Assembly: GCA_030431455.1 (NCBI GenBank)
Contig: JAUIJE010000002.1
Coordinates: 193,294 to 257,293, forward strand
Origin: a bacterium
GTDB taxonomy: Bacteria; Myxococcota; UBA727; JAUIJE01
Length of the DNA stretch: 64,000 nucleotides
Direction: 5' to 3'
Under the pieces are notes generated by a model, which saw only the letters and a program-made list of their open reading frames with translations, searched no databases and had not been told where the DNA came from. The translations under genes were made by a program, and so were the position numbers. Below are positions 1 through 8,554 of this stretch, one piece after another (the first letter of the stretch is position 1; each line of letters begins with the position of its first letter).

Positions 1-120
1 GCGCGTCACCGGCGGGAGTCGAACCCGCGCCACCAATCAAATGTAGTCTTCCCCCGCATTCGTCGAACCTGCCAAACGGCCCATCACTCCCTTCGTTCGA
101 TTTCGCTCCTGAACAATCTC
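1..120 (-). ncRNA. Candidate tRNA-like non-coding RNA element, possibly a YrlA-type Y RNA. It is partial and runs off the window start.
   Basis: The minus strand carries a near-perfect tRNA T-arm, GCGGG-TTCGACT-CCCGC (rc of 12..28), followed by a 7-nt acceptor-like 3' strand. Two more GGTTCGA/ATCGAAC T-loop-like motifs lie at rc 61..73 and 94..106. It sits immediately 3' of rsr on the same strand. No 5' acceptor partner is present, so it is not a canonical tRNA. Confidence 0.3.
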
Positions 121-245
121 TGCCCGACCTGCTGGTCAAACCTGATTCTGGTCTCGGCCGCACACCGTCTCCGGTGGCCCGGGGGGACGGCCCCATTGCC
201 GCCCCCCCCCCGCCGCGTACTGGCCCCAAAACGGGCCAAACTCAC

Positions 246-1820
246 TCACAACGTCACGCGCTCGATGCGGCGCACCCACCCGTCTGTGTCGTCGTCACCT
301 TGCGCAAACCGCGCCACCACGTTGAACACCTCGTCGGAAAAGCCGCCGACGTTCAAAATGTCCTGCGCGTTCTGCGCTTGCACCGTGCCGTAGGGCTGAA
401 TGTCAATGCAGACAAGCTTCGCCCCGGGATTGCGCGCACTCAAGATGCGCCAGGCCTCCATGGTGCGGGTGCCGCGGCCGATGCCCGCGTCCACCCACGA
501 TTCGCAATCCGACACCATCACCACCAAGTCCACCCGCGCCTGGTCGCGCACGAGCTTTTCGAGGGGCGCGGCACAGTTGGTGCCGCCCGACGGAATCTTG
601 GTGAGCCCGTCGGCGATGGTGAGCACGGTGTCCCGCGGGTTGAACGCGTGCTCGACCACCCGATCGTGGAACGGGATGAGCCGCGCCCGGTTGTTCTTCC
701 GCACCATCGCCGCCCCGAAGAGCGCGGCCACGTCGAGACAGCGCACCGCGGTGGTCGACCCGCGCCGGTACCCGGTCACCGGGCTCTGCATCGACCCCGA
801 CACGTCGATGCACACCGCCACGTCGCCGTCGATGCGGGGCACTTTTTGGAGCGCGACCTCCATCGCGTCCTGCAGCGCATCGGTGATGGGCCGCGGCATA
901 CCCCACGCGTTTTTGTACGCGGTCATCAACTGGTACGGGAACACCCGCGCCTTTTTGATCTCCTCCTTGTCCGCCAGGCGCTTGGCGATGGTCCGCACGA
1001 GGCGGGCATCGGTGAGCACGCCGTGGCGCGCAAACGTGTTCAAGTTCATGCGCGTCATCTGCCAACCGGCATCGCGCGCCACCTGCTTCCAGTCCTCGCG
1101 GTCGAGCCCGAGGCTCTGCACCATTTGGAACGGCACCTTCGGGGGCACCGCCCGACGAGAACCCGCCTGACGCAAGGCCTTGTAGGCCTCGTACTGCTGG
1201 ACCAGGTCCGGCAATGCCTCTGCGTCCACGTCCTTGCCGAGCAAGTACCCGTAGAACGCCGCGCGCTTCTCGGTCGCGGGCTTGGGGTGCACCATCTTGA
1301 TGATGTCCGCCATGCTCGGCGACTGGCCCACCGACTGGCGGAACAGCCACTCTTCGTCCCGCCCCGCCAACCACTCGCGCACCATGCGCTTGGGCCGGGT
1401 CCCGAGGGATTTACGGGGCACCGCCCCCGAGCGCATGATCTGCACAAAGTTGCGCAGCATCTTGCCGTTGTCGATCACGCGGCCGAAGATGTGCTCGGCG
1501 AGCTCGCCATGCTCGACGGTGAGCAGCGCCAAGAGCAGCGCGGGCACGTCCTTCATATACATTTTTTCGCGCATGTAGACCGCGCACTGGGCCACGAAGG
1601 CAGGATCGTCGCCGGCCACGTCGATGGCCGCCATCAACACCTCTTGCAGCTGGGTCTCGGCCCCCGCGTAAAAGGTGCGGTTGAGGCACCCGGTGGCGGT
1701 GTATTGGGCCAACGCCTGCTTGGCGGTGAGCTGGTAGGCCTTGCCTCCAGCTTCATTGCGCACGGTCGCGCGCGGAATGAGTTTGCCCACCACAGATTGA
1801 AACAAAGTTTTGTTGGCCAT
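246..1820 (-). CDS. rsr: Ro60-like ribonucleoprotein Rsr, with a TROVE domain and a C-terminal vWA domain
   Basis: 525 aa. It has a TROVE-like N-terminal region and a vWA domain with the MIDAS motif D-V-S-G-S-M (CIDVSGSM). The RBS GGGAGG lies 6 nt upstream of the ATG at 1820. The ORF-track start at 2006 is rejected because the terminator hairpin lies upstream of it. Confidence 0.88.
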   Translation of the reverse strand: MANKTLFQSVVGKLIPRATVRNEAGGKAYQLTAKQALAQYTATGCLNRTFYAGAETQLQEVLMAAIDVAGDDPAFVAQCAVYMREKMYMKDVPALLLALLTVEHGELAEHIFGRVIDNGKMLRNFVQIMRSGAVPRKSLGTRPKRMVREWLAGRDEEWLFRQSVGQSPSMADIIKMVHPKPATEKRAAFYGYLLGKDVDAEALPDLVQQYEAYKALRQAGSRRAVPPKVPFQMVQSLGLDREDWKQVARDAGWQMTRMNLNTFARHGVLTDARLVRTIAKRLADKEEIKKARVFPYQLMTAYKNAWGMPRPITDALQDAMEVALQKVPRIDGDVAVCIDVSGSMQSPVTGYRRGSTTAVRCLDVAALFGAAMVRKNNRARLIPFHDRVVEHAFNPRDTVLTIADGLTKIPSGGTNCAAPLEKLVRDQARVDLVVMVSDCESWVDAGIGRGTRTMEAWRILSARNPGAKLVCIDIQPYGTVQAQNAQDILNVGGFSDEVFNVVARFAQGDDDTDGWVRRIERVTL

Positions 1821-2002
1821 CGTGTCCCTCCCGGCAAATGTCCTGGGTTGCGGAAGACACTGCGCGAGGCGGGCCAACTTTCGTCGGTGACGTAAGATGC
1901 TGTTTTTATTGGATATTGTGAATCGTGGGCGGTTCCGGATTGATACAATGCGCTCGTATATTATCCAGCGAGATAGGCGATGCGCACGGTGCGGCCGCGG
2001 CC

Positions 2003-2047
2003 CCAAAAAAGGTGCGGGGGCCCGGCGACAAGCACCGGACCCCCGCT
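2003..2047 (-). terminator. Rho-independent terminator of the fasciclin gene
   Basis: On the minus strand a 12-bp GC stem GCGGGGGTCCGG/CCGGGCCCCCGC with a 9-nt loop is followed by ACCTTTTTTGG. It lies directly 3' of the stop at 2087. Confidence 0.6.
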
Positions 2048-2086
2048 GGTCTGGTCTGGGAAGACCGAGGAAGACCGAAGGAAGGC

Positions 2087-3973
2087 CTAATTGCTGGGCG
2101 GCAGGAGCACGGTGTCGATGACGTGGATGACGCCGTTGCTGGTTTCGATGTCGGTGTACGTCACCGTGGCGGCGCCGTTGAGCACCACGCCATCGGAGGC
2201 ATCGATGGCGATGGTGGGGTTGCCGGTGGCCGCGGTGGCCACGCTGGTCAGGCCCACCACGGTGGCGGCCAAGTTGGTGCCGGGCACGACGTGGTAGAGC
2301 AGCACGTTGGCCAGCTCCGCTTGGCTGAGGCCGCTGATGTCACCGAGGGCGGCGAAGGCTTCGTTGGTCGGCGCCAACACCGTGTAGGTGGTGCCGTCGT
2401 CGACCGCCAAGGTGGTGGCGAGGTCGGCGGTCACCACCGCGTCCACCAGCGACGAGAACCGGGGGTAGGCGGACAGGGCGTCGACCAAGTTCCCGGGGAA
2501 CACCGCCTCTTGGGGCAAGATCACGCCGTCCACGACGTGGATGAGCCCGTTTTGTGCGGGCACGTCGGTGGCGGTGACCTGGGCGGTGCCGTTGAGCACC
2601 ACGGTGCCGTTGTCGATTTGGATCGACAGCTCGGTGCTGTTGAGCATGGTGGCGGAGGAGAGCCCGACCACCGCGCCGCTGTCCACGATTCCATCGGTCA
2701 CGTGGTGCAAAAGAATGGGGGAGAGCGTGGGGGTCCCGGGCTCGCCCACGAGGGTGGCGACCAGGCCCGCGGGCAGAAGGTCGAACGCGTCGTCGGTGGG
2801 GGCGAACACGGTGAACGGCCCATTGGGCGAGCCGACATCGTCCGCGAGTTCGGCCGCGCCGAGGGCGGTGACCAGGGTGGAAAAGCCCGCGTCGGTGGCC
2901 ACGGTGGGGATGTCCCCGGGGGGCAAGAGCACCGCGTCGATGACGTGGATGACGCCGTTGGTGGTCTGGATGTCGGTGAAGGTCACGTTGACGGTGTCGT
3001 TGAGCACCACGCCCCCATCGACCACGTCCACGGTCACCGGCGCGCCCAGGGCGGTCTCGGCGGTGACGAGGCCGACCACGGTCTCGGCGGTCACCGCGCC
3101 GGGGACCACGTGGTAGAGGAGCACGTCGGCGAGTTCGGCTGGGCTGAGGCCGCTGATGTCGCCCAGCGCGGCAAACGCGTTGTTGGTGGGGGCGAACACG
3201 GTGAAGGTGTTGGCCTCATCGCCGAGGGTGGTGGCCAGGTCCGCGGTGACCACCGCGTCGACCAGGTCTGAGAACCGTGGATAGCTGGACAGGGCGTCAA
3301 CCAAGGTGCCCGGGAAGTCGTTGCCGGGGACGAGCACGCCATCGAGCACGTGAATCACGCCGTTGTCGGCCACGATGTCGGTGGCGGTGACCTGGGCGGT
3401 GCCGTTGACGACCACGGTGCCCTGGTCGACCTGGATCGTGATGTCGCCGTTGAGGGTGGTGGCGCTGTCCAAGGTCACCACCGTGTCCTCCCGGACGTCT
3501 CCGCTGATCACGTGGTGCTGCAAGATGCCGGTCAGGGTGGGCACGTCCGCCAACAGGGCGTCGACCAACCCCGCCGGCAACGCCGCGAACGCGTCATCGG
3601 TGGGCGCCAAGACGGTGTACAGATCCTCCCCGTCCAGGGTCTCGACCAAACCCGCCGCGGTCACCGCCGCCACCAGCGTGTCGAAGTTGCCGTCGCTGCT
3701 CGCGATGTCCACGATGCTGTTGTCCCCGTCACCATCACCATCACCATCACCATCCCCATCCCCATCTCCGTCGCCATCCCCATCCCCATCCCCATCACCG
3801 TCGCCGTCGCCATCCCCGTCGCCGTCGCCATCGCCGTCGCCATCGCCGTCCCCGTCACCATCGCCGTCGCCATCACCATCGCCCGCGGTGTCGCTGGGGC
3901 AGGCGGTCAGGCCGAGGGGAAGAGCGGCCATGAGCGCGGCCACCAGTGTCATTGTCCAGGTTTGTTTCAGCAT
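2087..3973 (-). CDS. Secreted lipoprotein with four fasciclin (FAS1) domains and a long (Gly-Asp)n linker
   Basis: There is a signal peptide with a lipobox (LGLTAC). The FAS1 signature TVFAPTNxAF recurs four times. About 33 GD dipeptide repeats follow the lipobox. Confidence 0.9.
   Translation of the reverse strand: MLKQTWTMTLVAALMAALPLGLTACPSDTAGDGDGDGDGDGDGDGDGDGDGDGDGDGDGDGDGDGDGDGDGDGDGDGDGDGDGDNSIVDIASSDGNFDTLVAAVTAAGLVETLDGEDLYTVLAPTDDAFAALPAGLVDALLADVPTLTGILQHHVISGDVREDTVVTLDSATTLNGDITIQVDQGTVVVNGTAQVTATDIVADNGVIHVLDGVLVPGNDFPGTLVDALSSYPRFSDLVDAVVTADLATTLGDEANTFTVFAPTNNAFAALGDISGLSPAELADVLLYHVVPGAVTAETVVGLVTAETALGAPVTVDVVDGGVVLNDTVNVTFTDIQTTNGVIHVIDAVLLPPGDIPTVATDAGFSTLVTALGAAELADDVGSPNGPFTVFAPTDDAFDLLPAGLVATLVGEPGTPTLSPILLHHVTDGIVDSGAVVGLSSATMLNSTELSIQIDNGTVVLNGTAQVTATDVPAQNGLIHVVDGVILPQEAVFPGNLVDALSAYPRFSSLVDAVVTADLATTLAVDDGTTYTVLAPTNEAFAALGDISGLSQAELANVLLYHVVPGTNLAATVVGLTSVATAATGNPTIAIDASDGVVLNGAATVTYTDIETSNGVIHVIDTVLLPPSN
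3700..3890. repeat. Imperfect hexanucleotide tandem repeat (GTCDCC/GGHGAC)n encoding (GD)~33
   Basis: Runs of gtcgccatc/gtcaccatc units inside the fasciclin CDS form a low-complexity coding microsatellite. Confidence 0.8.
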
Positions 3974-4124
3974 CGCTTGTCACTCCATTGTTGTGCCAGC
4001 AGCGGCATTGTGTGACCGATGCCTCTTCGATCGATGTGGTGACAAGAATTGCGTGAACTGTGGATCGGCTTTTTTGTCCAGAAACGCAGTATGGGAGCGC
4101 GATCGGACCGGCTATACGCAGGGC

Positions 4125-5717
4125 ATGGCCACGGTGGCGTACGGCATGTTGGGCACGACCCTCGATCGCATGGGCGCGCGGCGTTGGGATCGCTGGCGCC
4201 CGACGGTGGGGCTGTGCCAACAAGACGACCTGCTCATCGACAAGCTGGTGCTGCTGCACCCCGCCCGGAGCAAACGCCTGGGACATGAGGTGCAGCAGGA
4301 CATCGCCACGGTGTCGCCCGAGACCTCCGTCGAGCTGGTCGAGCTGTCGTTTCGCAACCCCTGGGACTTTGAAGAGGTCTACGGCAAGCTCTACGCGTTC
4401 TTGCAGACCCAGACCTTCCGCCCCAGCCGCGACGACTACCTGGTGCACATCACCACCGGCACCCACGTGGCCCAGATCTGTTGGTTCTTGCTCACCGAGA
4501 GCCGCCACATCCCCGCGCGCTTGGTGCAGACCTCCCCGAGCAACCAAAAGGAGGACGTGGCCGGGCGCGCCGACGTCATCGACCTCGACCTCTCCAAGTA
4601 CGACGCCCTCTGGCGGCGCTTTGCCAAAGAGCGCGAAGATGCACTGACATTCCTCAAGTCCGGCATCGCCACCCGCAACGAAGCGTTCAACGCCCAGATC
4701 GAACAGATCGAGCGCGTGGCGCTCTCCTCCAAAGAGCCCATGCTGCTCATGGGCCCCACCGGGGCGGGCAAGTCGCACCTCGCCTCCCGCATCTACGAGC
4801 TGAAGAACACCCGCCACCAGACCTTCGGGGACTTCGTCGAGGTCAACTGCGCGACCCTGCGCGGGGACGGGGCGATGAGCGCGCTGTTTGGGCACAAAAA
4901 GGGCGCGTTCACCGGGGCGAGCACCGACCGGGCCGGCCTGCTCAAGAAGGCGGACAAGGGCCTGCTCTTCCTCGACGAAATCGGCGAGCTCGGTCTCGAC
5001 GAGCAGGCCATGTTGCTGCGCGCCCTCGAGGACAAACGGTTCTTGCCCCTGGGGGCGGACAAGGAAGTGGACAGCGACTTTCAGCTCATCGCCGGCACCA
5101 ACCGCGACCTGTCCGAGCGCGTGGCCGAGGGCGGCTTTCGCGACGACCTGCTCGCGCGCATCGACGTGTGGACCTTTCGCCTGCCCGGGCTGCGCGACCG
5201 CATCGAGGACCTCGAGCCCAACCTCGTGTTCGAGCTCGACCGGTTCGAGCAGCGCTACCGGGGGCGGGTCACGTTCAACAAGTCGGCCAAGGCGCGTTAC
5301 CTGTCGTTCGCCACGTCCCCGCACGCGACCTGGGCGGGCAACTTCCGCGACCTGAACAAGAGCGTCACCCGCATGGCCACCCTCGCCCAGGGAGGGCGCA
5401 TCGACGACGAGGTGGTGCAGGGCGAGATCGAACGGCTTGCGCAAAGCTGGGCCAAGACCACGCCGCTGTCCGACGCACAGAAGTTCGCCCGGGACCTGCT
5501 CGGGGACGAGGCCTGGGCCGACATCGACCCGTTTGACCAGCCCCAGCTGGCCCACGCGGTGTTCGTGTGCCGGCAGGCCAAGAGCTTGTCCGAGGCGGGG
5601 CGCACCCTGTTCGCGGTGTCGCGGCAAAAGCGGCGCTCGACCAACGACGCGGACCGGCTGCGCAAATACCTCGCCCGGTTCGGCCTCAGCTATTCACAGA
5701 TTCAGGAGGCCTCGTGA
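4125..5717 (+). CDS. rtcR: Sigma54-dependent transcriptional regulator RtcR, with an N-terminal CARF-like sensor, an AAA+ sigma54 activator domain and a C-terminal HTH
   Basis: 531 aa that are colinear with E. coli RtcR from the N-terminus (MATVAYGMLGTTLDRMG...WRPTVGLCQQ...) through the Walker A motif GPTGAGKS and the GAFTGA loop to the C-terminal RLRKYLARFGL. The upstream 254 codons of the ORF-track call are antisense to the fasciclin gene and are rejected. Confidence 0.92.
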   Translation: MATVAYGMLGTTLDRMGARRWDRWRPTVGLCQQDDLLIDKLVLLHPARSKRLGHEVQQDIATVSPETSVELVELSFRNPWDFEEVYGKLYAFLQTQTFRPSRDDYLVHITTGTHVAQICWFLLTESRHIPARLVQTSPSNQKEDVAGRADVIDLDLSKYDALWRRFAKEREDALTFLKSGIATRNEAFNAQIEQIERVALSSKEPMLLMGPTGAGKSHLASRIYELKNTRHQTFGDFVEVNCATLRGDGAMSALFGHKKGAFTGASTDRAGLLKKADKGLLFLDEIGELGLDEQAMLLRALEDKRFLPLGADKEVDSDFQLIAGTNRDLSERVAEGGFRDDLLARIDVWTFRLPGLRDRIEDLEPNLVFELDRFEQRYRGRVTFNKSAKARYLSFATSPHATWAGNFRDLNKSVTRMATLAQGGRIDDEVVQGEIERLAQSWAKTTPLSDAQKFARDLLGDEAWADIDPFDQPQLAHAVFVCRQAKSLSEAGRTLFAVSRQKRRSTNDADRLRKYLARFGLSYSQIQEAS

Positions 5718-6571
5718 GCCCCGCCCCGCTGACGGTACAAGGCGTGGCCCGGTTGCGGGCCTGGGACCACGGGGGCGAGGGCCTGCCCCTGGTGCTTTTC
5801 CTACACGGCTTTTTGGACACCGGGCGCAGCTTCGACGACGTGTGCGCGCCCCTGTTGGGCCGGGCGCGGTGCGTGGCCCTCGATTGGCGCGGGCACGGGC
5901 AGAGCCAGATGGCGGGCCCGGGGGCGAGCTTTCATCTGCTCGACCACGTCAAGGACCTGACCTTGGCCCTCGAAGACCTCGAGGACCGCTTTGGGAAGTT
6001 GGCCCTGCTGGTCGGGCACTCCCTGGGCGGCAACACCGCGCTGCTCTATGCAGGGGCATTGCCAGACCGGGTGCCGCGGCTGTTGCTCCTCGATGCGCTG
6101 GGGCCGCCGGCCGAGGACCCGAGCGAACAGCCCGAACGGTTGGGCCACATGCTCGCCTTGCTGTCCGCCAAAAAACCGTTCGCCGTGGTGGCGGACAAGG
6201 ACGAAGCCATCGCCCGGCTGATGCGCAACAACCGCGGCCTGACCGCGACCGGGGCCGAACGCATGGTGCGCCACGCGTTGGTGCCACGAGAGGACGGCGG
6301 CTGGGCATTCCCGTTCGCGCGGGACCTGCGGGGGCCGAACCCGGTGCGCCACCCCGAGGAGATGTGGCTCACCCTGTGCGCGCGGGTCACCGCACGCACC
6401 GTCGTCGTGCGCGCCACGAATGGGTACGTGCCCGAGGGCGATCCCATTCCCGGCCGCATCGCCGCGTTGGGCGCGACGATGTTGACCTGGGACGCGCCCC
6501 ATCACGTGCACGTCGAGCAGCCGGACAATGTCGCCCAGCTGATCGGTACGATGCTCGACGCCGGCGCGTAA
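5714..6571 (+). CDS. Alpha/beta-hydrolase fold protein
   Basis: It contains the nucleophile-elbow motif GHSLGG and an HGF oxyanion motif. The GTG start overlaps the rtcR stop (GTGA) and follows the RBS AGGAGG, which indicates translational coupling with rtcR. Confidence 0.8.
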   Translation: MSPAPLTVQGVARLRAWDHGGEGLPLVLFLHGFLDTGRSFDDVCAPLLGRARCVALDWRGHGQSQMAGPGASFHLLDHVKDLTLALEDLEDRFGKLALLVGHSLGGNTALLYAGALPDRVPRLLLLDALGPPAEDPSEQPERLGHMLALLSAKKPFAVVADKDEAIARLMRNNRGLTATGAERMVRHALVPREDGGWAFPFARDLRGPNPVRHPEEMWLTLCARVTARTVVVRATNGYVPEGDPIPGRIAALGATMLTWDAPHHVHVEQPDNVAQLIGTMLDAGA

Positions 6572-6908
6572 CAGATCTTCACACGACGTCGTGCACGACG
6601 GTCAAACGACCGACGTGGGCTGCGCCACTGCACTGTGCACACGTTTTTTGTCGCGGGTGTTCGCGGGTGTGCGTTTTTCTGACGATCGGTGAGTGTGCCC
6701 ACCGTCGTCGATCATTCACGCTTCTGGTTCGATTCGTTGTTCGTCACAAATCTGTGCGGCGCACACCCCGCAACCTGGATCAAATCCACCGCACGCGGTC
6801 GGGCAAAACGTCTCAGGTGTGTCCGGGGGGAAACACTTTTGTCTCATGACACATCAAAAATCCGTCGGTCCGGTCTCGATCGCGGATGCGGACGCAGGCC
6901 CGCGGGGC

Positions 6909-6925
6909 TGGCACAGCCCGTGCTT
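6909..6925 (+). promoter_or_regulatory. Sigma54 (RpoN) promoter with -24/-12 elements
   Basis: The sequence is TGGCACAGCCCGTGCTT. GG sits at 6910..6911 and GC at 6922..6923, which gives the canonical 12-nt spacing and matches TGGCAC-N5-TTGCW at the conserved positions. It lies ~45 bp upstream of a small ORF that has a strong RBS. Confidence 0.55.
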
Positions 6926-6968
6926 AATCTGGGGGTGCGAACACAACCCGATCACCGGGAGGCTCATC

Positions 6969-7091
6969 ATGCGCAACTCTGAAAAGGTCAAAAACCTCAA
7001 GCAACCTGAGGACCTTCTCGAGGCGTATCAATGGTTGGCCTCGCACCTCGGGCTCGGCCAGGTCAAAAAGCCCGCCGCGGTCCGCGGCTGA
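6969..7091 (+). CDS. Small 40-aa protein (MRNSEKVKNLKQPEDLLEAYQWLASHLGLGQVKKPAAVRG)
   Basis: The RBS GGGAGG lies 8 nt upstream of the ATG. The gene sits between the sigma54 promoter and the FHA-EBP gene. Its local GC is lower than its surroundings. Confidence 0.4.
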   Translation: MRNSEKVKNLKQPEDLLEAYQWLASHLGLGQVKKPAAVRG

Positions 7092-7141
7092 TTTCCGCCG
7101 CTCGCCCGAGCGTCCGCCCAAAGCCCTGACCCGACTGTGTT

Positions 7142-8554
7142 ATGCCTGTCGCGGTGAGCCGCGGCACCCTCGCCAACCTACGAGGCACCATCGTCACCGA
7201 CCACGCGTCGGGGACCCCGGTGGTGCGCACCTACCGCTTGGTGGTGAGCGACGGCCCGGACCAGGGCAAAGAGCACGTGCTCGAGCTCGGCACCACCTTG
7301 GTGGGCAGCCATCCCTCGACGGACTTTGTGCTCACCGACCCGCGGGTGTCGCGCCGGCACTGCGAGCTGCGGGTGGTCGCCGACGGTGTCCAGGTTCGGG
7401 ACCTGGGCAGCAAAAACGGCATCTTCGTCGGCCGGGTCAAGGTCGAGCAAGCGGTGTTGCTCCCCGGGGCCAAGCTGCGGCTCGGCGACACCAAAATCGC
7501 GGTGCACAACCTCGACGCGTCGGTGGAGGTGGGAGACCTCGCCACCTTCGGCGACCTGCGCACCGAGAGCCCGGCGATGAAATCGGTGTTCGGCCTTCTG
7601 TCCCGGGCCTCGACCTCGGACGCGACCATTCTCCTCGAGGGCGAGACGGGGGTGGGCAAGGACGTGCTCGCGCGCACCATCCACGCGCAGAGCCACCGGG
7701 CCAAAGGGCCGCTGGTGGTGTTCGACTGCAGCGCGGTGTCCGAGTCGCTGATCGCGGGGGAGCTGTTTGGGCACAAAAAGGGCGCGTTCACCGGGGCGAC
7801 CACCGACCGGGCGGGGGTGTTCGAGGAGGCCGCGGGGGGTACGGTGTTCCTCGACGAGGTGGGCGAGCTCAGCCTCGACCTTCAGCCAATGCTGTTGCGT
7901 GCCCTGGAGAACCGCCAGGTGCGCCGGGTGGGCGAAGCCAAGAGCCGGGACATCGACGTGCGGGTGGTGGCGGCCACCAACCGGGACCTGATGGCCGAGG
8001 TCAAAGCCGGGCGGTTTCGCCAGGACCTCTTTTACCGGCTCGCCATCGTCAAGGTCTCGGTCCCGCCCTTGCGGGAGCGCAAGGCGGACCTGCCCTTGTT
8101 GGCCAAGGTGCTGCTCGAGCGGCTCGGCCTGTCCGGCGACGTGCTCACCCGGTCGGACATGCGCGCGCTCACCGCCTACGACTGGCCCGGCAACGTGCGC
8201 GAGCTCAAGAACATGCTCGAACAGTCCATGGCCTTGTCCGACGAGCACGAGTTCGTGCTCCTCGGTCCCCGGGGGGCGAACGAGCCGGGCCCGCCCACCG
8301 CCGTCGACGAGGACGGTGACGACGACGATTTTGGTGAGGGCGAAAACACCATGACCGGGGTGGGCGGCCCCCTCGACGTCAAAAAGCCTTACAAAGAGGC
8401 CCGCGAAGATGTGCTCCGCTCGTTCGAGCAGCGCTACATCGAGTCGTTGCTCAAGGCCCACGACGGCAATGTGTCGGCCGCGGCCCGGGCCGCGGGCATC
8501 GACCGCAATTACGTCTACCGGCTGATGAAGCGGTTCGGCATCGAAAAGCCCTGA
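7142..8554 (+). CDS. Sigma54-dependent transcriptional activator with an N-terminal FHA domain
   Basis: It has an FHA domain (CELRVVADGVQVRDLGSKNGIFVG), an AAA+ domain (GETGVGKD, GAFTGA, the ESELFGH-like ELFGHKKG) and a C-terminal Fis-type HTH. Confidence 0.9.
   Translation: MPVAVSRGTLANLRGTIVTDHASGTPVVRTYRLVVSDGPDQGKEHVLELGTTLVGSHPSTDFVLTDPRVSRRHCELRVVADGVQVRDLGSKNGIFVGRVKVEQAVLLPGAKLRLGDTKIAVHNLDASVEVGDLATFGDLRTESPAMKSVFGLLSRASTSDATILLEGETGVGKDVLARTIHAQSHRAKGPLVVFDCSAVSESLIAGELFGHKKGAFTGATTDRAGVFEEAAGGTVFLDEVGELSLDLQPMLLRALENRQVRRVGEAKSRDIDVRVVAATNRDLMAEVKAGRFRQDLFYRLAIVKVSVPPLRERKADLPLLAKVLLERLGLSGDVLTRSDMRALTAYDWPGNVRELKNMLEQSMALSDEHEFVLLGPRGANEPGPPTAVDEDGDDDDFGEGENTMTGVGGPLDVKKPYKEAREDVLRSFEQRYIESLLKAHDGNVSAAARAAGIDRNYVYRLMKRFGIEKP

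Follow-up and report, generated by a model that had tools for sequence, protein, structure and literature searches.

A fasciclin lipoprotein gene separates rtcR from rsr in a myxobacterial genome, where rsr probably keeps its own RtcR/sigma-54 control unit

Does rsr remain under the control of RtcR when an unrelated gene comes to lie between the two? In Salmonella and Escherichia coli, the activation of RtcR runs via its CARF domain, one example of a ligand being tRNA fragments with a terminal 2',3'-cyclic phosphate (PMC7790460, PMC9650030, PMC9879122). Salmonella enterica has the operon rsr-yrlBA-rtcBA with a divergent rtcR (Hughes et al. 2020, PMC7790460; Kurasz et al. 2023, PMC9879122), and the control region of Escherichia coli rtcBA consists of an upstream activating sequence (UAS), a site for the integration host factor (IHF) and a -24/-12 promoter (PMC9650030; for the E. 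coli rtcR/rtcBA region see Genschik et al. 1998, as cited in PMC7790460). The question is raised by a contig of a Myxococcota genome (JAUIJE010000002.1 of assembly GCA_030431455.1), of which we analyzed a stretch of 64,000 nucleotides (nt), hereafter the window. Here, a lipoprotein gene with four fasciclin (FAS1) domains separates rtcR from rsr. The original prediction, made on the sequence alone, took the locus to be split and saw no correctly spaced sigma-54 promoter before rsr. We consider it quite likely that rsr keeps its own RtcR enhancer and sigma-54 promoter, on which RtcR would act in trans, and that the fasciclin gene is a separate unit. This reading builds on the following features, given in window positions.

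246 to 1820, minus strand: rsr, encoding a Ro60-like RNA-binding protein of 524 aa
1861 to 1876, minus strand: sigma-54-type -24/-12 element TGGCCCG-CCTC-GCGCA (TGGCCCGCCTCGCGCA), with exact GG-N10-GC spacing
1877 to 1961, minus strand: AT-rich spacer from enhancer to promoter, a possible bending or IHF region
1962 to 1975, no strand assigned: dyad TATC-N6-GATA (cCTATCTCGCTGGATAAt on the rsr strand), the predicted RtcR enhancer (UAS)
4125 to 5717, plus strand: rtcR, 530 aa, with a CARF-type RtcR N-terminal domain, a sigma-54 AAA+ domain with GAFTGA and a C-terminal helix-turn-helix (HTH)

The promoter was sought by scoring all 16-mers of the form GG-N10-GC in the 450 nt before each rsr against TGGCACG-N4-TTGCW, both in the window and in 110 related loci (59 from genomes and 51 from metagenomes; 14 of the 110 from Myxococcota) found through relatives of the window Rsr. 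Contrary to the statement that no such element precedes rsr, TGGCCCGCCTCGCGCA lies at 1876-1861(-), 56 nt before the rsr ATG; the original prediction had itself named the discovery of a correctly spaced promoter as the result that would speak against it. The element has the GG at -24 and the GC at -12, exactly 10 nt apart and upstream of the target, that characterize RtcR-dependent promoters, with a C at -14. High-scoring elements are found 45-86 nt ahead of the rsr ATG in the majority of relatives that have rtcR close by, and also in many that do not. Among the Myxococcota relatives, the -24 box is unusual (TGGCCCG-N4-(C/G)TGCT, 63-68 nt before the ATG), and a MAFFT alignment places the window element in register with these. 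Elements of equal or better score occur at 0.24 per strand-kb in the window, so that chance would provide about 0.06 of them over the 266 nt of the intergenic strand, and about 0.01 over the 45 nt in which the relatives have theirs. Transcription is predicted to start near 1850 (taking C1862 as -12), which would leave a leader of about 30 nt with the Shine-Dalgarno sequence GGGAGGGA.

The leaders of related rsr genes show two further features. Myxococcota relatives (L016, L023, L025, L029, L040, L046, L047, and L059) have a conserved hairpin, CATCGGCCGCC-N3-5-GGCGGCATG, directly before a CAAGGAG ribosome-binding site, and the window lacks it. In locus L024, the sigma-54 element and rsr are separated by a long, almost perfect inverted repeat (GGCGCGCCCCGTTGTACGGCAAGCTGTCAGCTTGCCGG ... 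CCGGCAAGCTGACAGCTTGCCGTACAACCGGGCGCGCC) that lies about 20-160 nt ahead of the gene and resembles a small palindromic insertion in the leader.

The second part of the putative control unit is a palindrome, TATC-N6-GATA, first spotted on reading the rtcR-rsr intergenic regions of relatives. The window has it once, at 1962-1975, while shuffled sequences are expected to have 0.01. The copy is perfect, its flanks are consensus-like (CTATC...GATAA), and the -24 element follows 99 nt downstream, a distance that is mid-range among the relatives and within the roughly 70-150 nt expected of an enhancer, with RtcR as the presumed binder of the dyad. The 1.42 Mb of related loci contain 33 such dyads, of which about 26, from some two dozen loci in several phyla, are 66-136 nt upstream of a sigma-54-like element before rsr or rtcB. 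The element linked to the dyad precedes rtcB in L046, L047, L059, L098, and L101, where rtcB is the divergent gene. Exact dyads are found in 20 of 86 rsr upstream regions (background 0.002 per 280 nt), and dyads with at most one mismatch in 37 of the 86 (background 0.063). Seen from rtcR, the dyad of canonical loci precedes the ATG by about 20-220 nt, in most cases by 40-60 nt. Finally, rtcBA of E. coli K-12 has a dyad with one mismatch, TATAaaagacGATA, 122 nt upstream of TGGCACGacggTTGCA.

The regulator itself is readily assigned. The window RtcR scores 798.8 bits with the NCBIfam RtcR equivalog NF038308 (cut-off 650) and matches PF06956 (3.3e-78) and PF00158 (Sigma54_activat, 1.1e-48); the CARF N-terminal domain, the AAA+ domain and the HTH that define the family are all present, and GAFTGA can be seen in the translation. 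Its C-terminal segment, SLSEAGRTLFAVSRQKRRSTNDADRLRKYLARFGL, is kept in relatives: the HTH segment LSEAGRxLFxxSRxxxxxxNDADRLRKYLARFGL is nearly invariant across the related loci and the window RtcR, which is consistent with a shared recognition site. Concerning the start of the protein, the database version (P0121, 547 aa) begins at a TTG 51 nt upstream of the ATG, thus covering 4074-4124, and the alignment to the family model favours ATG 4125. We think the odds slightly favour (Y)TATC-N6-GATA(R), 14 bp, being an RtcR enhancer shared by Myxococcota, Acidobacteriota, Planctomycetota, Verrucomicrobiota, and Pseudomonadota, with the one-mismatch version in E. coli.

Between the dyad and the promoter lies AT-rich DNA. 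The A+T content is 53% at 1895-1990 and 56.6% at 1877-1975, compared with 32% for the whole window; the AT-rich stretch reported in the original prediction is thus real. There, it had been taken for the likely rsr promoter and a possible hiding place for a small RNA, neither of which finds support. A scan with the E. coli consensus, which is weak evidence in this genome, gave no sigma-70-like site in 1-7200, the folding of the island is unexceptional on its two strands (z of 0.15 and 1.18), and there is no Rfam match. We read the island as enhancer and spacer, because it holds the conserved dyad and the AT-rich spacer of the relatives: the stretch from the dyad to the -24 box is enriched in A+T in 11 of 14 G+C-rich relatives (44-56% against 27-39%). 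By eye, the canonical IHF consensus WATCARNNNNTTR has no match between dyad and promoter.

These data bear on the view of the original prediction, in which the split is functional and rsr has been freed from RtcR and sigma-54, with the AT-rich island supplying a promoter of the housekeeping type. Promoters are indeed often found in the AT-rich parts of G+C-rich genomes, the -12 box is weak with its C at -14, and rtcR is 2.3 kb away. We nevertheless hold this view to be unlikely, given the outcome of the sigma-70 scan and the presence in the island of the sole dyad of the window, at a spacing typical of relatives, followed by a correctly spaced -24/-12 element where the relatives have theirs.

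The distance to rtcR carries little weight when the relatives are considered. Dyad and sigma-54 element together are kept about 155-275 nt before the orphan rsr of Myxococcales loci (L008, L014, L016, L023, and L040) that have no rtcR, rtcB or rtcA within 10 kb and whose upstream neighbours are unrelated (LarA-like, sulfatase, FadL-type, and WYL-domain proteins). The dyad-promoter unit is thus retained in the absence of a nearby rtcR, and would therefore work without adjacency, against the idea of a functional split. The 2.3 kb between rtcR and the enhancer in the window should be irrelevant, because the regulator diffuses.

What, then, is the gene in between? Three further features have to be considered.

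2005 to 2046, minus strand: intrinsic-terminator-like hairpin (2046-2014) followed by T6, 40 nt past the fasciclin stop codon
2087 to 3973, minus strand: fasciclin lipoprotein gene, 628 aa, with four FAS1 domains (PF02469, 3.5e-119) and a (DG)n linker
3974 to 4124, no strand assigned: divergent fasciclin/rtcR intergenic region, with neither sigma-54 element nor dyad

The description of a four-FAS1 lipoprotein gene with its own terminator between rtcR and rsr was accurate. Fasciclin domains are combined with a putative signal peptide, and the N-terminus (MLKQTWTMTLVAALMAALPLGLTAC, read from the translation) has the lipobox L-T-A-C at residues 22-25 after a hydrophobic stretch, with the lipobox cysteine followed by the (DG)n linker. 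The closest homologue of the protein is 58% identical and sits at a contig end, where its context is uninformative; exact look-ups gave no record for this protein or for the window RtcR. The predicted terminator is a G+C-rich hairpin followed by a U-run: a perfect 14-bp stem with 12 G-C pairs and a 5-nt loop precedes ACC and T6. Its fold of -38.9 kcal/mol (z = -4.45) was equalled by none of 200 shuffles. On the other side of the gene, both strands of 3960-4140 are free of GG-N10-GC elements, in line with the earlier statement that no sigma-54 element lies upstream of the fasciclin gene, and apart from the copy at 1962 no TATC-N6-GATA dyad occurs in 1800-4300 even with one mismatch allowed. The sequence TGGCAC at 3998(-), upstream of the fasciclin start, was discarded as a promoter since it has no GC at -12 and overlaps the ribosome-binding site. 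The lack of both sigma-54 element and dyad upstream, plus the terminator, makes the fasciclin gene, as far as can be judged from sequence, an independent unit outside the RtcR circuit.

The fasciclin gene could still have been recruited to the RtcR response, either by read-through together with rsr or by activation from the intergenic region that it shares with rtcR. It immediately precedes rsr in the same orientation, and it is divergent from rtcR, the usual seat of an RtcR target. Yet the divergent region has no element that RtcR or sigma-54 would be expected to use, a strong hairpin with T6 follows the gene, none of the relatives ties a fasciclin gene to rtc or rsr genes, and the product is an exported adhesion-type protein with no evident role in RNA repair. 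This makes recruitment very improbable.

Two repeats in this region are worth recording. At 3693-3906, the (DG)n linker is coded by imperfect 6/12-nt tandem repeats, in which a repeat finder counts 11 overlapping copies; this tract could change length via slippage. A 15-nt inverted repeat with 93% complementarity (2156-2170 and 4128-4142, GTACGTCACCGTGGC and GCCACGGTGGCGTAC) links the fasciclin 3' end with the first codons of rtcR and brackets the segment between them, probably by chance.

To place this arrangement among the related loci, we searched them by tblastn with RtcR, E. coli-type RtcB and RtcA, the fasciclin protein, and the hydrolase encoded downstream of rtcR. In thirty-five loci, rtcR and rsr are direct divergent neighbours about 130-600 nt apart, and as a rule rtcB and rtcA come after rsr, beyond a gap. 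Four loci (L046, L047, L059, and L086) have the order rtcBA(-), rtcR(+), rsr(+), and two others (L075 and L101) have rsr followed by rtcR(-) and rtcBA. L053 and L098 resemble the window in having 2-3 kb between rtcR and rsr, occupied by genes whose products are secreted or lipoprotein-like. In many loci, rtcR is absent from the surrounding 10 kb (L025 and L029 in addition to the five Myxococcales loci with orphan rsr, for example). The fasciclin gene has no homologue in any of the 110 loci, and a homologue of the alpha/beta-hydrolase gene is likewise absent from all of them. The best RtcR after that of the window itself is 65% identical and is found in the Polyangia locus L115, where rtcR is directly divergent from an rsr whose product is 51% identical, with no fasciclin gene. 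Because it is absent from all related loci, L115 included, the presence of the fasciclin gene at this position is, from these comparisons, lineage-specific.

That the gene was inserted, as originally proposed, holds to this extent only, as there is no sign of a recent or mobile insertion. The flanks have neither direct nor inverted repeats, the repeats being solely internal to the gene (FAS1 units and (DG)n codons), and its G+C content of 0.66-0.70 matches that of its neighbours. With no flanking repeats and no shift in composition, we rejected insertion by a mobile element or horizontal acquisition.

The other end of the rsr transcription unit runs to the edge of the window, where two RNA features were found.

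1 to 66, minus strand: 5' half of a YrlA-like (Y RNA-like) gene with the tRNA-like T-arm GCGGGTTCGACTCCCGC, running off the window edge
100 to 245, minus strand: G+C-rich structured spacer between the rsr stop and YrlA

Positions 66-1(-) match the Rfam family YrlA (RF02553, model positions 1-58 of 114) with 17.1 bits and E=3.4, a match of half length since the window ends there; the T-arm is convincing by eye. Full YrlA matches above the gathering score directly follow rsr in L045 and L050. The spacer at 100-245, which contains TTGACCAGC/AGGTCGGGC, folds with a minimum free energy of -71.3 kcal/mol (z = -3.39, none of 200 shuffles being as stable) and has no match in Rfam. A second, YrlB-like Y RNA is one possible identity, a processing structure another. 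Neither rtcB nor rtcA is present in the 64-kb window; their place in the operon would lie beyond window position 1, and an operon lacking them would be an rsr-Y RNA unit like those of several Myxococcales genomes. In several loci of Pyrinomonadaceae and other Acidobacteriota (L003, L004, L007, L015, L019, L027, and L031), T-arm-like sequences of the GGTTCGAATCC type are found upstream of rsr, where a tRNA-like T-arm replaces the sigma-54 element, which suggests a different order and control of Y RNA or tRNA genes.

The YrlA-like gene is also relevant to the idea that sigma-54 element and dyad are decaying remnants, and that rsr has been silent or expressed at a low constitutive level since the rearrangement. 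The degenerate -12 box and the missing leader hairpin of Myxococcota (CATCGGCCGCC...GGCGGCATG) agree with such decay. However, the frames of rsr and rtcR are intact, full length and with conserved motifs, the dyad has lost neither its perfect arms nor its consensus-like flanks, a putative Y RNA-like gene follows rsr, and an identical rsr sequence is present in two independent read sets, as two 2-kb contigs that were all an exact look-up of Rsr returned. Decay is thus doubtful, in our view marginally more so than a functional split.

Set beside the known systems, the window locus shares much with that of Salmonella enterica: the regulator has the CARF/AAA+/HTH architecture, rsr comes first after a predicted sigma-54 promoter and is followed by a putative YrlA-like RNA gene. 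It differs by the 1.9-kb lipoprotein gene and terminator placed between rtcR and the rsr control region, and by the divergence of its Rsr. The protein matches PF25045 (vWA_Ro60, 4.5e-18) and PF05731 (TROVE, 8.7e-08) and scores 91.7 bits with the NCBIfam Rsr equivalog, whose cut-off is 900; by its sequence, it is therefore a member of the Ro60 family, not the enterobacterial equivalog. The three-part architecture is that of E. coli rtcBA, with the dyad at 122 nt from the -24 box in E. coli and at 99 nt here, whereas the target is rsr instead of rtcB, the boxes read TGGCCCG (-24) and GCGCA (-12), and there is no recognisable IHF consensus. The closest parallels are orphan or rearranged rsr loci in Myxococcota genomes derived from metagenomes (L008, L014, L016, L023, L040, L046, L047, L059, L053, and L098). 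There, rsr retains the dyad and/or the sigma-54 element while rtcR is missing, has the same orientation as rsr, or is 2-3 kb off, the genes intervening in L053 and L098 being again of the secreted or lipoprotein-like kind. The fasciclin gene is missing from all of these loci, and their Rsr proteins are at most 58% identical to that of the window.

Several points weigh against an intact RtcR-dependent unit. The -12 box, GCGCA, has a C where the consensus has T at -14, and the element scores 13/16, compared with 14-16 in most relatives; CGC at the same -12 position also occurs in L032, L036, and L044. Many related loci have no exact dyad, and the intergenic region of L115, read by eye, has no dyad and no clear -24/-12 element. 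The dyad is assigned to RtcR by co-occurrence only, because we found no published RtcR-binding sequence to set beside it in the literature we looked at. The T-run of the terminator begins 3 nt past the stem. The existence of rpoN, for which no search was made, is implied by two other sigma-54 activator-like genes in the window. Finally, the nearest relatives are distant enough (58% for Rsr in the genome and metagenome collections, the range being 49-58% for the 59 genome loci, and 65% for RtcR) to make the history of the rearrangement untraceable.

Downstream of rtcR, the window continues with the following gene.

5714 to 6571, plus strand: alpha/beta-hydrolase gene, whose start GTG (5714-5716) overlaps the rtcR stop TGA (5715-5717) as GTGA

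The proposed translational coupling of this gene to rtcR is supported as far as the overlap of start and stop is concerned, and a Shine-Dalgarno sequence, AGGAGG, is present at 5703-5708. The hydrolase domain starts 24 residues past GTG 5714, and its first beta-strand (LTVQGVARL) precedes the next candidate starts; the GTGA overlap is therefore most likely the true arrangement. In the AT-richer gap after the hydrolase gene there is a good sigma-54-like element (TGGCACAGCCCGTGCT, 6909-6924(+), 14.5/16), upstream of a possible open reading frame (ORF) of 40 codons (about 6972-7091) and of the gene at 7142-8554. This is a second gene with a sigma-54-activator-like domain, whose AAA+ part is 45% identical to that of RtcR.

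Taken together, rsr and the downstream Y RNA gene or genes would carry a complete enhancer-dependent control unit, which begins about 30 nt downstream of the fasciclin terminator and is made of the dyad at 1962-1975, a spacer of about 85 nt rich in A+T, and the -24/-12 element at 1876-1861. RtcR, made from 4125-5717 and activated through its CARF domain by damaged-RNA ligands, would bind the dyad in trans with its C-terminal HTH. Looping would then let it open the sigma-54 holoenzyme complex at 1876-1861, with transcription starting near 1850 and covering rsr, the Y RNA, and possibly rtcBA. The fasciclin gene would be an unrelated transcription unit with its promoter within 3974-4124, and its terminator would keep read-through out of the rsr control region; the position of the gene between rtcR and the enhancer would go back to an old rearrangement and not to a recent insertion by a mobile element. 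The mechanism is drawn from the work on Salmonella and E. coli, and the elements, their spacing, rarity, and conservation were read directly here; from these we infer the binding of RtcR to the dyad, the activity of the promoter and the function of the terminator. The observations of the original prediction have largely stood (the gene map, which agrees with the ORF listing and the family scans, the terminator, the GTGA overlap, and the AT-rich stretch), its interpretation only partly, and its claim about the promoter has not.

The rtcR-rsr locus is thus physically split, and probably not functionally so. It looks like an ordinary rearranged member of the known RtcR/sigma-54/rsr system, not a broken circuit, and a locus that appears split need not be a broken one. 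Control of rsr by RtcR and sigma-54 would be modular, with enhancer, spacer, and promoter moving along with the target and no need for adjacency to the regulator. If the dyad is the RtcR enhancer, a more speculative consequence is that the rearrangement took the enhancer away from the promoter region of rtcR, so that a dyad-based autoregulation of rtcR would have been lost while the control of rsr was kept. The candidate dyad may prove more useful than the main finding, as a guide to RtcR regulons wherever rsr, rtcBA, and rtcR are scattered over the genome: if the assignment is right, the targets of RtcR, including orphan rsr genes far from any rtcR, would be predictable from sequence alone.

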